A stretch of 64,000 bases of DNA, taken from IMG/VR virus record IMGVR_UViG_3300021226_000189; one strand, written 5' to 3'. Made by a program: the position numbers and the translations under genes. The notes beneath the pieces are model-generated. The model was not told the origin of the DNA, did not search any database, and was given only the letters and a program-made list of their open reading frames with translations. Source of the stretch: a virus. How positions within the stretch are numbered: position 1 is the stretch's first letter; every line of letters begins with the position of its first letter. This document shows, piece after piece, positions 4,148-28,756 of the stretch.

Positions 4148-4432
4148 ATGAATAACATGAACACCACCACCATCACTGCCGCTCACGTCGAAGCTTTCCT
4201 TGCTTTCATGTCCCCTTCAGCGGGACAAGTGATTGAACTCCCGAATGATCGGGTGCTTCTCCACTTCACTGAAGACGGAACAAACCGTGTCGCATGGATA
4301 CCGCAAGGCGCGAGCATTCACCCGATGAACGTGCAAACGATGAAGCTCACGCATTTGAGTGCTGGGGAGCTTGCGATTGTCCTTGACAAATTCAAGAACC
4401 CAAGGACTGCGAAAGTCCTCGGGCATGTCTAA
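4148..4432 (+). CDS. Early small hypothetical protein (94 aa)
   Basis: ATG 9 nt after TAAGAT. Confidence 0.75.
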   Translation: MNNMNTTTITAAHVEAFLAFMSPSAGQVIELPNDRVLLHFTEDGTNRVAWIPQGASIHPMNVQTMKLTHLSAGELAIVLDKFKNPRTAKVLGHV

Positions 4433-4505
4433 CATCTAGCATCTAACGCCCTCGTGTCCTAACGGATGTGAGGGCAATTAAAAACTAAAGTAAGATAGTC
4501 CTGTC

Positions 4506-9373: not shown

Positions 9374-10108
9374 TTAATTTTTTTTCCAATAACCTCTTGG
9401 TGGTTTATTACCACCAATTTTAAGAACTCTCTTTTCAATTGCTTTATCACTGACTCCTAATTCTTTAGATATTTGAGATGTCGGTTTTTCCCAGACCATT
9501 TTCATCAATTCTTCATTTGTCGGCCAAGTTATTTTATTCTTTTTTTCAACACTGTTGAGATTTTTTATAAAACAAGATTTACATTTTGTAGATTTTTTAT
9601 TGATAATATCACCACAATCCTCGCAACGATTACCATACTTATCACTCTTTCTCTCGTTCGATGTTTTAATACGATGACAATTAGGACAAATAAATTGTAA
9701 ATTTTCTAACCGATTATCATGTGGATTAGAATTAACGTGATCAATATCTAATGTAATCGGGTTATCGTTCCACACCGACAAACCACATATATTGCAGCAG
9801 TATTCAACGCCATGATAAATCATATAATCTTTTAATTTTGCAGATTTTAATCTGTTACCGTTCGGTAAAGGTTTATCATACGATAAGATTTGATAGCTTC
9901 GCAACTGTTCACCTTTTATTTTATATCTTTCTTCATCAGTTAAAAAATGATCTGTTGAAATTCCATATTCCTTTATAAGATTTTTAATCCATGGATAAGA
10001 CCCACCGTTTAATTTGACTCCCAAATTAAGAAATATTTCCGAATACATTCTTGAATTTTTAACAGCGATTTCTATTTCTTCTTTTGTATATTTACGATTC
10101 TTTTTCAT
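9374..10108 (-). CDS. HNH homing endonuclease
   Basis: CNICG...LDIDHVNSNPHDNRLENLQFICPNCH; extra Zn finger and HTH-like tail. Confidence 0.9.
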   Translation of the reverse strand: MKKNRKYTKEEIEIAVKNSRMYSEIFLNLGVKLNGGSYPWIKNLIKEYGISTDHFLTDEERYKIKGEQLRSYQILSYDKPLPNGNRLKSAKLKDYMIYHGVEYCCNICGLSVWNDNPITLDIDHVNSNPHDNRLENLQFICPNCHRIKTSNERKSDKYGNRCEDCGDIINKKSTKCKSCFIKNLNSVEKKNKITWPTNEELMKMVWEKPTSQISKELGVSDKAIEKRVLKIGGNKPPRGYWKKN

Positions 10109-10187
10109 AATTATAATTATTTAGTATGTGGGTTCGATTTATCAATACTTGACAAATCAGAATCTTATGATTAAATACTTACTCAGT

Positions 10188-10263
10188 CGCGAGGCAATCA
10201 GTAGTGGTACTGAAATAGTCTCATAAGCTAGGCTTCGGTGTGGATTAAACCCCACCGCAACCA
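10188..10263 (+). tRNA. Atypical tRNA-Met(CAT), initiator-like
   Basis: CTCATAA loop, D arm CAGT/ACTG, 5' CGCG and 3' CCGCAACCA as in fMet; poor acceptor pairing and non-canonical T loop. Confidence 0.55.
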
Positions 10264-10266
10264 AAA

Positions 10267-10341
10267 GCGTCTATGATGTAATCGTTAGCATCCGATCCTT
10301 CCAAGTTCGGTGTGTGGGTTAGAGTCCCACTGGACGCTCCA
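10267..10341 (+). tRNA. tRNA-Gly(TCC)
   Basis: GCGTCTA/TGGACGC acceptor, CTTCCAA loop, CCA. Confidence 0.9.
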
Positions 10342-10350
10342 TTTCATCAG

Positions 10351-10458
10351 ATGAAATTTAAAAAATTACGAAAGAAATTTAAAACGGATTACTCAACTTG
10401 CAAATGGTTGAAATGGTTTAAATGGAAAAAAACTTGTAGAGATAAAGATTATGATTAG
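10351..10458 (+). CDS. Lys/Trp-rich peptide (35 aa)
   Basis: Translated by hand: MKFKKLRKKFKTDYSTCKWLKWFKWKKTCRDKDYD; end overlaps the next start. Confidence 0.45.
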   Translation: MKFKKLRKKFKTDYSTCKWLKWFKWKKTCRDKDYD

Positions 10459-10768
10459 AATTAAAATAATAGCGGACGCTTCATCATTCGGTGCTAGAAT
10501 CGCACTATTCAAAGATGATGATAAAGTAACATCTTTAAATTATGAACTTTTAGATGATCTTACGTTCCTATCTTCAAAGGATACACTATTCAAAGGACCA
10601 GAATTATCATTGAAAGATGCAGTGTTTGAATTGGCTATAATGTTGAAGAACGATAGTCCAGAAAAATTGAATGATGTTTCAATTGATGAAATTGTGGAAG
10701 CGTTTGAAGCTTTAATTGAAAAATATAAAATCAAAAGATGGGATGGGGGATACCTACCCTTTCAATAA
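10451..10768 (+). CDS. Hypothetical protein (105 aa)
   Basis: ORF track. Confidence 0.7.
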   Translation: MIRIKIIADASSFGARIALFKDDDKVTSLNYELLDDLTFLSSKDTLFKGPELSLKDAVFELAIMLKNDSPEKLNDVSIDEIVEAFEALIEKYKIKRWDGGYLPFQ

Positions 10769-10773
10769 TACAT

Positions 10774-11010
10774 ATGAATAAAGTAGAAATCAAAATGGAG
10801 AAAATTGAGATCAAATCTCACCCCCGTAAATTAAAAGGGGATTGGAAAATTGAAATTGATCCTGAACCAATCTGTTTGTATTATCATCCACCGATATGGG
10901 AAAGAGTATGGGATAAGATTCTGAATTTATTTGGTAAAAGAAAAAATCATATTTATGATGAAATCACAAAAGAATTTGAAAATAAAAAAAAATTGAAGAA
11001 AAAGACTTGA
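10774..11010 (+). CDS. Hypothetical protein (78 aa)
   Basis: In-frame ATG after the upstream stop. Confidence 0.6.
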   Translation: MNKVEIKMEKIEIKSHPRKLKGDWKIEIDPEPICLYYHPPIWERVWDKILNLFGKRKNHIYDEITKEFENKKKLKKKT

Positions 11011-11045
11011 AAAAGTTACGAGGAATGCTAAATACTAATAACAAC

Positions 11046-11108
11046 ATGAAATACGAACAATATAATCAAAACAAGCCAGCGACACCGAATGGGTGGCGGC
11101 GTGAATGA
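11046..11108 (+). CDS. Putative leader peptide MKYEQYNQNKPATPNGWRRE
   Basis: Lies between TTGAAA-N16-TAAATA promoter and terminator hairpin. Confidence 0.55.
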   Translation: MKYEQYNQNKPATPNGWRRE

Positions 11109-11140
11109 TTGTGTTTTAGTAAGACATATTGGATTTCGCG

Positions 11141-11166
11141 CCTCATCTGAAAAGATGGGGTTTTTT
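11141..11166 (+). terminator. Intrinsic terminator upstream of tRNA cluster (attenuator-like)
   Basis: CCTCATCT-GAAA-AGATGGGG-TTTTTT. Confidence 0.8.
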
Positions 11167-11245
11167 ATTTTAGAGGTGAACGAAGCGACCTGAACTGCTA
11201 GAGAGTGGTGAAAGACTAATAGAGAATGTTGAAATATATTTTTAT

Positions 11246-11320
11246 GGGATCATAATTCAATGGTAGAATAACTCCCTTTTAAGGAGTAAGCTGAAGGTTC
11301 GAGTCCTTCTGATCCCACCA
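11246..11320 (+). tRNA. tRNA-Lys(TTT)
   Basis: Cloverleaf, CTTTTAA loop, CCA. Confidence 0.95.
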
Positions 11321-11322
11321 AT

Positions 11323-11398
11323 TCCCAAGTAGCTCAGTTGGTAGAGCAAGCGGCTGTTAACCGCTGGGTCGTAGGTTCGAACCCTACCTTGGGAGCCA
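11323..11398 (+). tRNA. tRNA-Asn(GTT)
   Basis: Cloverleaf, CTGTTAA loop, CCA. Confidence 0.95.
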
Positions 11399-11403
11399 TT
11401 AAT

Positions 11404-11479
11404 GCTTCTATCGTCTAAAGGTCAGGACAAAGGATTTTCAATCCTTAGATCGCGGGTTCAAGTCCCCGTAGAAGTACCA
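11404..11479 (+). tRNA. tRNA-Glu(TTC)
   Basis: Cloverleaf, TTTTCAA loop, CCA. Confidence 0.9.
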
Positions 11480-11482
11480 TAT

Positions 11483-11556
11483 GCCTCCATAGTTCAATGG
11501 TAGAACTCCCGATTTGTAATCGGGTGATGCAGATTCGAATTCTGCTGGAGGCTCCA
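11483..11556 (+). tRNA. tRNA-Thr(TGT)
   Basis: Cloverleaf, TTTGTAA loop, CCA. Confidence 0.95.
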
Positions 11557-11565
11557 TTTTTTAAT

Positions 11566-11652
11566 GCGTTAGCGGCGAAGTAGGAGAGTCGCGGCGGTCT
11601 GTAAAACCGCAGCCTTCGGGCTTAGTAGATTCGAATTCTACCTAACGCACCA
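11566..11652 (+). tRNA. tRNA-Tyr(GTA)
   Basis: Cloverleaf with long variable arm, CTGTAAA loop, CCA. Confidence 0.95.
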
Positions 11653-11662
11653 TTTTTAACAT

Positions 11663-11740
11663 CTAGTCGTGGTGGAGAGGTCTAACACACCTGCTTTGGA
11701 AGCAGGAACAACGTTCGTTCGAATCGAACCGACTAGACCA
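11663..11740 (+). tRNA. tRNA-Pro(TGG)
   Basis: CTAGTCG/CGACTAG acceptor, TTTGGAA loop, ACCA. Confidence 0.9.
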
Positions 11741-11750
11741 TTTTTTCAAC

Positions 11751-11827
11751 GGGTCATTAGTTCAGTTGGTAGAACGTCTGCCTTGCAAGCAGAATGTCGT
11801 GGGTTCGAGTCCCACATGTATCCACCA
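11751..11827 (+). tRNA. tRNA-Ala(TGC)
   Basis: CTTGCAA loop, G3-U70, one bulged base in acceptor stem, CCA. Confidence 0.9.
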
Positions 11828-11836
11828 TTTTTTAAT

Positions 11837-11912
11837 TGGGCGTTGGTGTAATCGGCTAGCACCGCAGATTTTGATTCTGTTAGTAGGGGTTCGAGTCCTC
11901 TACGCCCTACCA
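11837..11912 (+). tRNA. tRNA-Gln(TTG)
   Basis: TTTTGAT loop, 1-72 mismatch, CCA. Confidence 0.9.
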
Positions 11913-12079
11913 CTCATATTATCTATCCATGGAACACGTGGAGGATTGTCCATCACTCTATCAACAGATTGTCTAAATTCCCAATCCCAAGTGTAACGAT
12001 CCATGATTTCCTCATCAATTTCGTTTAATATCAATTGAACACATTTATCAACAACATTCTCATCATTCCATTCTTTCAT
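11900..12079 (-). CDS. Hypothetical protein (59 aa, MKEWNDENVVDK...)
   Basis: Translated by hand; last 13 nt overlap tRNA-Gln; downstream of TTGACA-N16-TATATT at 12178-12151. Confidence 0.5.
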   Translation of the reverse strand: MKEWNDENVVDKCVQLILNEIDEEIMDRYTWDWEFRQSVDRVMDNPPRVPWIDNMSGRA

Positions 12080-12194
12080 AATATTACCACCATTGCGCTA
12101 ATTTCATACACATCCTCACCTATGATAACTCTTTTGTTTTTCACAATCTCAATATAACCCATTTCCTTCCTCTGTCAATAGATTAAATAATACC

Positions 12195-12668
12195 ATGCGA
12201 ACATTTCTAGAATCATTCTACGATATCCAAGAGCTATCCCCAAATACTACACTCCAAGATATCATGAATACTCACTATCTTAAAGTTTATCGCTCATCGG
12301 CTCGACCTGAAAAAAATGATTATCAATCAGGTTCTCACGCAGGAACTTGGCAACAAGCCATGATTCGTGCTGATTACATGATCAACGATGAAGGTAAATT
12401 TGACAAGTATTATCTTTACGAATTGATTATCCGAATTGAGAATGTGTATCCCGAATTATTACCTGATGATGGAACAGATCATGGATATGATTACTCTAAG
12501 AAATTGGGGAATTATGATATCGCGTTCTATAAGAATACAGGAGAAGGTGATATCAGAAATGAAAATCTTTCCGTTATTATCAACAATCCTGATAGCGTGG
12601 TTGAATCTAAGATGGTTAGGGAGATTGATGGAGAGTATTTAACTTCCATTCAGAAAGAATTGTATTAA
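12195..12668 (+). CDS. Putative ADP-ribosyltransferase-like protein (ART-PolyVal-like)
   Basis: KVYRS...GSHAGT..QA...YDIAFYKNTGEG...SVIINNP pattern; TAAATA-N5-ATG. Confidence 0.45.
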   Translation: MRTFLESFYDIQELSPNTTLQDIMNTHYLKVYRSSARPEKNDYQSGSHAGTWQQAMIRADYMINDEGKFDKYYLYELIIRIENVYPELLPDDGTDHGYDYSKKLGNYDIAFYKNTGEGDIRNENLSVIINNPDSVVESKMVREIDGEYLTSIQKELY

Positions 12669-28303: not shown

Positions 28304-28756
28304 TCAATAACCAAGCAATCTCTTTCTACGAGTATCTGGTGTGGAAACTGAGAAGGTTGCAGATAATGCTGAAACTGGGACAGTTGTAACATTACTCAAG
28401 AATGGGAATACTGTATATGAATTATCAGTGTTTACAATCGCCATGTTAGTATTGTGCAACGATGCAGGAATATTAAACACAGAACCAAGCACATTCACTG
28501 TGACATTCGGAAAATTTGAAATGTTGAATGTTGATACAGTATTAACAGTAGTGCCGACTGAAATTTGAATAGAGGTGAATGTCAGACCTGCGTCATCACT
28601 CGACAGAGAAACAACACCCAATTGTCGTGAACCAACGACAACATTGTCACCTGATAGATAGGTCACACCTGTCGCAGAGAGTCTCGTGTCGGTAAGATTT
28701 GGACTGCCAGTTTTTTCAGCGGAAAGAAGATTTTGTTGGAACGTATAAATGCTCAT
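28304..28756 (-). CDS. Late Ser/Thr/Val-rich virion protein
   Basis: TAAATA-N5-ATG; next to major capsid gene. Confidence 0.7.
   Translation of the reverse strand: MSIYTFQQNLLSAEKTGSPNLTDTRLSATGVTYLSGDNVVVGSRQLGVVSLSSDDAGLTFTSIQISVGTTVNTVSTFNISNFPNVTVNVLGSVFNIPASLHNTNMAIVNTDNSYTVFPFLSNVTTVPVSALSATFSVSTPDTRRKRLLGY

Follow-up and report, generated by a model that had tools for sequence, protein, structure and literature searches.

A candidate leader-peptide attenuator with codons naming the tRNA genes behind it in an uncultured T4-like phage

A compact cluster of eight tRNA genes in an uncultured T4-like phage is preceded by what is probably a leader-peptide (ribosome-mediated) attenuator of transcription, one that responds to the supply of the same tRNAs whose genes it controls. 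The stretch of DNA that was analysed (the window) is 64,000 nucleotides long and derives from an IMG/VR virus record (IMGVR_UViG_3300021226_000189). The parts of the switch, their conservation, the match between leader codons and downstream anticodons, and the compensatory changes in the paired regions can be read directly from the DNA of the window and its relatives. Phage tRNA genes are usually viewed as a fixed supplement to codon usage or as decoys against tRNA-cleaving defences, and to our knowledge the control of their expression is largely unknown. If the reading proposed here is correct, the phage would obtain direct feedback on tRNA supply through the decoding of exactly the codons that its tRNAs serve, and leader-peptide attenuation would be extended from metabolic operons to the translation machinery. 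The mechanism as such is already known from amino-acid genes, and what is probably new is a cargo of tRNA genes that is named by the codons of the leader; full-text literature searches returned no description of leader-peptide attenuation of tRNA genes.

The unit spans 240 nt and is placed between a small gene ending at 11010 and the eight tightly packed tRNA genes, with all of its elements on the plus strand. A sigma-70-type promoter (11007-11034) is composed of a -35 box, TTGAAA (11007-11012), a 16-nt spacer, and an extended -10 box, TGnTAAATA (11026-11034), within which the TG falls at 11026-11027 and TAAATA at 11029-11034. Taken alone, the promoter match is within chance for the window (one match versus 0.53 expected); among 12 distinct relatives both boxes are invariant, and the sequence between them varies. 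The leader ORF (11046-11108) starts with an ATG at 11046, 11 nt downstream of the -10 box, and comprises 20 sense codons followed by a TGA at 11106-11108. An intrinsic terminator (11140-11166) separates it from the tRNA genes (11246-11912), which were detected with ARAGORN and Rfam RF00005 (45-75 bits) and specify, in order, Lys(UUU), Asn(GUU), Glu(UUC), Thr(UGU), Tyr(GUA), Pro(UGG), Ala(UGC), and Gln(UUG). A promoter of the form TTGAAA-N16-TAAATA, a 20-codon ORF, and a terminator ahead of eight tRNAs had been proposed in an earlier note on this DNA, and each of these elements is present as described.

Translation of the leader ORF is plausible, and as a prediction it is the weakest link of the argument for attenuation. 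Transcription would be expected to start near 11041, leaving a 5' UTR of 4-6 nt, and the ORF is not preceded by a Shine-Dalgarno sequence. This is ordinary for the phage, since a Shine-Dalgarno-like motif is found at two of the 50 long ORFs in the window. Many of the long ORFs have instead a TAAATA(ATA) box 5-6 nt before the ATG (e.g., at 28756, 28847, 37029, and 40497), which suggests that most messages are leaderless or nearly so and are transcribed from a T4-late-like promoter for each gene. The predicted 5' UTR of the leader is about 5 nt longer than the spacing at these apparently leaderless genes.

The proposed sensor consists of codons 2-15 of the leader (11049-11090), which encode two Lys, two Tyr, one Glu, two Gln, three Asn, two Pro, one Ala, and one Thr. 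This set coincides fully with the eight specificities of the downstream tRNAs, no amino acid being absent or superfluous; under strict wobble rules all 14 codons are readable by the matching anticodons, and all eight tRNAs are represented. The codon that follows the sensor, GGG, fits a tRNA-Gly(UCC) gene at 10267, and the only unmatched codons of the leader, one for Trp and two for Arg, all lie inside the G+C-rich arm of the antiterminator described below. The eight cognate residues make up 43.5% of the residues encoded by the phage, and a run of 14 cognate residues would be expected with a probability of 8.7e-6, falling to 1.2e-6 if all eight must occur in it. The harshest control is a shuffle of these 42 nt, because the segment is A-rich; a full match was obtained in 39 of 300,000 shuffles (1.3e-4), and a full match with all eight specificities present in 5 of 300,000. 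In the other five frames of the segment 3-7 of 14 codons are cognate, and the next longest cognate run among the 1204 other ATG frames in the window is six.

These controls bear on the possibility that the element acts as RNA alone, that is, as an ordinary terminator together with a 5' leader structure or a signal for processing of the tRNA precursor, in which the ORF is open by chance. The 135-nt leader is indeed strongly structured, being more stable than 200 of 200 shuffles (z = -4.4), and an A-rich composition by itself raises the share of Lys, Asn, Gln, and Thr codons (0.63 per codon). Nevertheless, we consider this explanation very unlikely, as it would not account for the rarity of the match among composition-matched shuffles, for the lower scores of the other frames, or for the manner in which the ORF has been maintained. 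Its start, stop, and frame are fixed in all 12 distinct relatives, the sole length change being a single 3-nt insertion, and many of the differences in the sensor part are synonymous third-position changes that stand alongside a conserved set of amino acids.

The relatives were retrieved from IMG/VR and public metagenomes with the neighbouring CCA-adding enzyme gene and with DNA patterns derived from the switch. In the metagenomes the switch pattern produced many false matches, the unit being present in 8 of 71 stretches, six of which were on contigs not already retrieved. Altogether the leader-terminator-tRNA unit is conserved in about 20 related contigs that carry 12 distinct sequences and nine different leader peptides, and no exact copy of the window's leader was found in the IMG/VR search. 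The order of the residues differs between the two main clades and the amino-acid set is kept, the pattern to be expected of selection on codon content and not on the structure of the peptide. The position of the unit is also constant, immediately 5' of the cluster, with an upstream neighbour that varies from a protein gene in the window to tRNA-Gly in several relatives (such as L001).

The leader also appears to follow its cargo. In the clade with seven specificities, which has no tRNA-Ala, the leaders are without an Ala codon, and the clade of the window has both tRNA-Ala and Ala codons. Two loci (L006 and L037) have gained a tRNA-Ile(GAU), and their leaders have ATT in the place of the AAT of the others; L037 has in addition gained a tRNA-Ser(UGA) along with a TCA codon in the leader, and its codons 2-16 are filled by ten amino acids that correspond to its ten tRNA specificities. 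The statistical weight of this covariation is modest, because it amounts to about three independent events among close relatives. There are also exceptions to the match: one clade has the Ser codons AGC and TCT without a tRNA-Ser, one Asp codon occurs, the leader of L006 has no Glu codon, and L037 has an ACT codon for Thr that its tRNA-Thr(UGU) would read by U-U wobble alone. At the same cluster position in two further loci, L101 (about 652-727) and L063, a tRNA-Thr body bears a UGA anticodon (Ser, UCA), and its variable region is longer by a 4-nt insertion; the leaders of both are unchanged, having kept the Thr codon and having no Ser codon, and the gene may represent either a recent anticodon switch or a gene in decay. 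The comparison of leader and cargo was made on a corrected tRNA inventory: ARAGORN undercounted the tRNAs of the relatives, and divergent tRNA-Gln(UUG) and tRNA-Asn(GUU) genes were added by Rfam or by eye (L015 8871-8941 and L021 3677-3747, both on the minus strand, L002 3863-3940, and L005 at about 4363-4436). Inventories of these phages made with a single tool are incomplete.

At the RNA level, the predicted pairings of the leader, a putative 1:2 hairpin included, would form the full 1:2 / 2:3 / 3:4 arrangement of classical attenuators. The terminator has a 9-bp stem (11140-11148 with 11153-11161), a GAAA loop, and a T-run (11161-11166); across the alignment of 12 sequences 100% of its cells are paired, and one pair occurs as C-G, U-A, and U-G. 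The antiterminator was noticed in the earlier note as a pairing of GGCGTGAA (11098-11105) with TTCGCGCC (11135-11142), which overlaps the 5' arm of the terminator. That pairing, which includes one G-U pair, is real, and folding adds six pairs to the helix (11091-11096 with 11143-11148; -23.9 kcal/mol), so that the whole 5' arm of the terminator, and not three bases of it, is sequestered. Region 3, the 3' arm of the antiterminator (11135-11148), thus includes the entire 5' arm of the terminator (11140-11148). Region 2 (11091-11115), which can pair with either region 1 or region 3, contributes the 5' arm of the antiterminator with its positions 11091-11105, and a small hairpin (11110-11128) that is enclosed by the antiterminator helix has an equivalent in the folds of the relatives. 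The 14 pairs of the antiterminator are formed in 96.4% of the cells of the 12-sequence alignment, compared with 43-62% for control helices slid by 1-3 columns, and three of the pairs have changed on both sides. One such compensated change converts the end of the leader from Arg-Arg-Glu to Arg-Cys-Lys with the helix intact, which implies that in the C-terminal part of the ORF selection acts on the RNA and not on the peptide.

Folding of the whole leader predicts a third helix, in which region 1 pairs with region 2 and the terminator remains intact. Region 1 (11059-11086), which lies inside the ORF, would form the 5' arm of this anti-antiterminator (1:2) hairpin, and positions 11106-11115 of region 2, from the stop codon onward, would close it. 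In the register of the window 74% of the cells of this helix are paired and covariation is weak; the hairpin is part of the minimum-energy fold in 11 of 12 variants.

The two exclusive states that the earlier note had posited, terminator and antiterminator, were each obtained when the RNA was folded, and their dependence on the ribosome was modelled in all 12 variants by making the bases under a ribosome unavailable for pairing. Without a ribosome, the 1:2 hairpin and the terminator formed in 11 of 12; a stall at codon 9 gave the antiterminator in 12 of 12, with loss from the terminator of at least the three basal G-C pairs beside the T-run; and with a ribosome at the stop codon, which lies inside region 2 (the mask extending to stop+14), the terminator alone formed in 12 of 12. 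Together with conservation and the compensatory changes, these folds favour the ribosome-mediated attenuation that had been suggested for this leader.

The steps that such a switch would follow can be outlined as below, with translation of the ORF, coupling of ribosome and polymerase, and a response to tRNA supply being presumed throughout. RNA polymerase would start at the conserved promoter, and a ribosome would translate the 20-codon leader close behind it. If Lys, Asn, Glu, Thr, Tyr, Pro, Ala, and Gln codons were all decoded quickly, the ribosome would reach the TGA at 11106 and cover region 2, the terminator would form, and the tRNA genes would stay untranscribed. If any of the sensor codons were slow, as the cognate tRNA was scarce, uncharged, or damaged, the ribosome would stall in region 1, region 2 would remain available to region 3, the terminator stem would lose its base to that pairing, and transcription would continue into the eight tRNA genes. 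Once made, these tRNAs would relieve the stall, which would make the loop one of negative feedback. Each amino acid is represented by just 1-3 sensor codons, and the early or late ones among them may fall outside the effective stall window.

The earlier note had envisaged the opposite relation between leader and cargo, in which the switch opens when translation of the leader fails or when the ribosome stalls at the Trp and Arg codons, and so reports host shut-off or the depletion of tRNAs that the phage does not carry. The antiterminator and the terminator on which that version depends are real; however, the codons assigned to the sensor (TGG, CGG, and CGT; 11094-11102) are themselves part of the antiterminator's 5' arm, where a stalled ribosome would mask the arm and favour termination, and they change along with the helix, as in the replacement of Arg-Arg-Glu by Arg-Cys-Lys. 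Moreover, they had been singled out as codons not supplied by the tRNAs of the window, whereas the codons that do fit a sensor, 2-15, are precisely those that the downstream tRNAs read, a 14-codon match that stalling at Trp or Arg would leave unexplained. As to read-through on ribosome failure, when the full transcript is folded with no ribosome on it the antiterminator arm would be sequestered by the 1:2 hairpin (11059-11086 with 11091-11115), which together with the terminator makes up the minimum-energy fold in 11 of the 12 variants. The two states are nevertheless close in energy. In transcripts ending just before the 3' arm of the terminator, folded without a ribosome, the 1:2 and 2:3 pairings lie within a few kcal/mol of each other; at equilibrium 7 of 12 variants adopt the antiterminator, and the 5' arm of the terminator is free in only 5 of 12. 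What happens on a leader that is not translated would therefore be decided by the order of folding, and such a leader could leak. On balance, a switch that answers to failed translation or to Trp and Arg codons is most improbable.

Sensing of tRNA supply through the matched codons still leaves room for more than one signal. One version would keep the same attenuator and have it respond to amino-acid starvation of the host, by way of uncharged tRNA, and not to the abundance or integrity of the tRNAs. Classical attenuators do respond to charging, and charging and abundance are inseparable from sequence, because the ribosome senses the supply of ternary complex only. Against starvation as the signal stands the nature of the list, which comprises eight to ten unrelated amino acids without a common biosynthetic pathway and with the tRNA genes behind the terminator as their common factor; extra tRNA, moreover, is no cure for a lack of amino acid. 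We therefore give starvation a very slim chance of being the signal. Another version, doubtful though deserving of mention, would make the leader a damage sensor, in which host anticodon nucleases or other tRNA-depleting defences that act on Lys, Asn, Tyr, Glu, or Gln tRNAs stall ribosomes on the leader and thereby induce the replacement tRNAs. The leader would then be a checklist of the tRNAs under attack, placed beside a CCA-adding/HD repair enzyme, and its role would go beyond compensation for codon usage.

The spacer between the terminator and the first tRNA gene (11167-11245, with a core at 11174-11228) is a second conserved feature of the alignment of relatives, and is more conserved than the leader itself. 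It exists among the relatives in two unrelated forms, and one contig combines a leader of the window's type with the other form; its fold is not significant (z = -1.1). A separate promoter for the tRNAs between 11170 and 11245, a point raised in the earlier note, was searched for, and the sole match in that interval (11229-11256) is not conserved and would place its -10 box within tRNA-Lys, leaving no promoter-like site able to serve the first tRNA. A promoter of an unrecognised type could be hidden in the spacer. A short stretch of the spacer (around GAAAGACTAAT) also occurs in a 125-nt insert in the interval between tRNA-Asn and tRNA-Glu of one relative (L002 3376-3500), and this insert may be a small stable RNA.

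The conservation of the spacer would be in keeping with a different view of the unit, namely that it is an independent gene for a small peptide, complete with promoter and terminator, which neighbours the tRNA genes by chance, the tRNAs being expressed through basal read-through or from an unrecognised promoter in the spacer. The ORF is after all conserved, and this phage has many very small genes that are each served by a promoter of their own. Against this view, it is the amino-acid set and the RNA pairing that are conserved and not the order of the residues or those at the C-terminus. Furthermore, the set of amino acids follows the tRNA cargo, the unit always stands immediately before the cluster whatever lies upstream of it, and the spacer offers no promoter match able to serve the first tRNA. 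A chance neighbour thus appears unlikely.

The proposed attenuator shares its design with the enterobacterial amino-acid leaders trpL, hisL, pheL, leuL, thrL, and ilvL, in which a short ORF with regulatory codons is combined with three overlapping helices (1:2, which is putative in the phage leader, 2:3 as antiterminator, and 3:4 as terminator). As in these leaders, the stop codon is so placed that a terminating ribosome would mask region 2, and a stall in region 1 would lead to read-through; and as in the multivalent thrL and ilvL, one leader would sense several amino acids. It differs from the leaders of amino-acid operons in that its cargo is tRNA genes and not enzymes, in that its regulatory codons name the downstream tRNAs, with 8-10 specificities represented by 1-3 codons each, and in that it is borne by a phage, is without a Shine-Dalgarno sequence, and has a very short predicted 5' UTR. 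In a cmscan search of 9500-12500 at E<=1, the Rfam leader families (Trp, His, Thr, Leu, Phe, and others) gave no match, and with regard to a T-box (specifier loop, T-box sequence, and stem I) the same search gave only tRNAs and chance matches. There is also a likeness to the pheST operon with its pheM leader and to the T-box leaders of synthetase genes, where the supply of tRNA sets the expression of a component of translation. The pheM leader, however, senses one amino acid and gates a synthetase, unlike the eight-tRNA leader described here, and T-box RNAs bind uncharged tRNA directly and without a ribosome, whereas the sensor here is a predicted translated ORF.

Among phages, T4 and its relatives offer a parallel in gene arrangement, having a compact tRNA cluster; the relatives of the window phage carry insertions of endonuclease size, and the neighbouring genes are of the RNA-repair type, the gene for the CCA-adding enzyme being the neighbour of the tRNA cluster in the window. 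The T4 tRNA cluster is described as being expressed from early and middle promoters with processing of the precursor, and we know of no translated leader or attenuator associated with it. In the Caulobacter phage phiCbK (JX100813, 47200-52800; L120) rho-independent terminators are annotated immediately before all three tRNA clusters. One of these clusters (Pro/Lys/Leu/Ser) is preceded on its 5' side by gp083, a protein of 45 residues in which 23 of 44 residues belong to those four amino acids but 15 are Ala or Thr; that gp083 might be a partly matching leader is suggestive only. The design is easy to search for, so that its spread across phages would be measurable. If the attenuator functions as proposed, its state would provide a simple readout of the tRNAs that limit a phage in its host, and the leader itself, a small natural sensor of tRNA availability, could find a second use as a reporter.

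Between the major head protein of the phage and cyanomyovirus gp23 the identity is about 32%, and head protein and CCA-adding enzyme alike are at most 32% identical to those of known phages; no cultured relative was found in a DNA search of 50,697 phage records, where tRNAs alone were matched. The related contigs reach 184-207 kb, some with terminal repeats. Within the related genomes, the other tRNA clusters (Leu/Ile/Met/Arg and Met/Gly) have neither a terminator nor a codon-matched leader ahead of them, and nothing comparable to the leader unit was found at a more distant locus (L010). Two distant units (L113 and L114) that share the spacer each consist of a promoter, an ORF of 18-19 codons, and a terminator. 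Each of the two ORFs contains 15 different amino acids (P = 0.004 and 0.01). Because the tRNA regions of these loci span so many specificities, a test for codon matching is without power there; in the equilibrium folds of the two units the terminator is retained even under a stalled ribosome.

Several further features of the tRNA regions came to light. In the related genomes each tRNA-Leu(UAA) gene is preceded, at a distance of 6-9 nt, by the end of a conserved 22-codon ORF (L032 1120-1195 and 2496-2571; L033, minus strand, with tRNA-Leu at 1035). This ORF was considered as another codon-matched leader and rejected, as its promoter is of the early-cassette type and it has neither a terminator nor a Leu codon. 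In a distant relative represented by a 206.6-kb contig that CheckV rates as 100% complete (L117; G006:C1:23941), a tRNA with the anticodon CUA, which would read the amber stop codon, has about 20 other tRNA genes around it, with small ORFs scattered between them. The window has an HNH endonuclease gene (9374-10108, minus strand) next to tRNA-Gly, at a place where the relatives have tRNA-Met and tRNA-Gly. The main cluster of the relatives is interrupted at different points by insertions of 600-730 nt (L001 2372-2992, L007 3072-3715, and L011 929-1656), and these coincide with missing tRNA-Ala or tRNA-Tyr genes. By analogy, the insertions and the HNH gene resemble the homing-endonuclease traffic of the T4 tRNA region.
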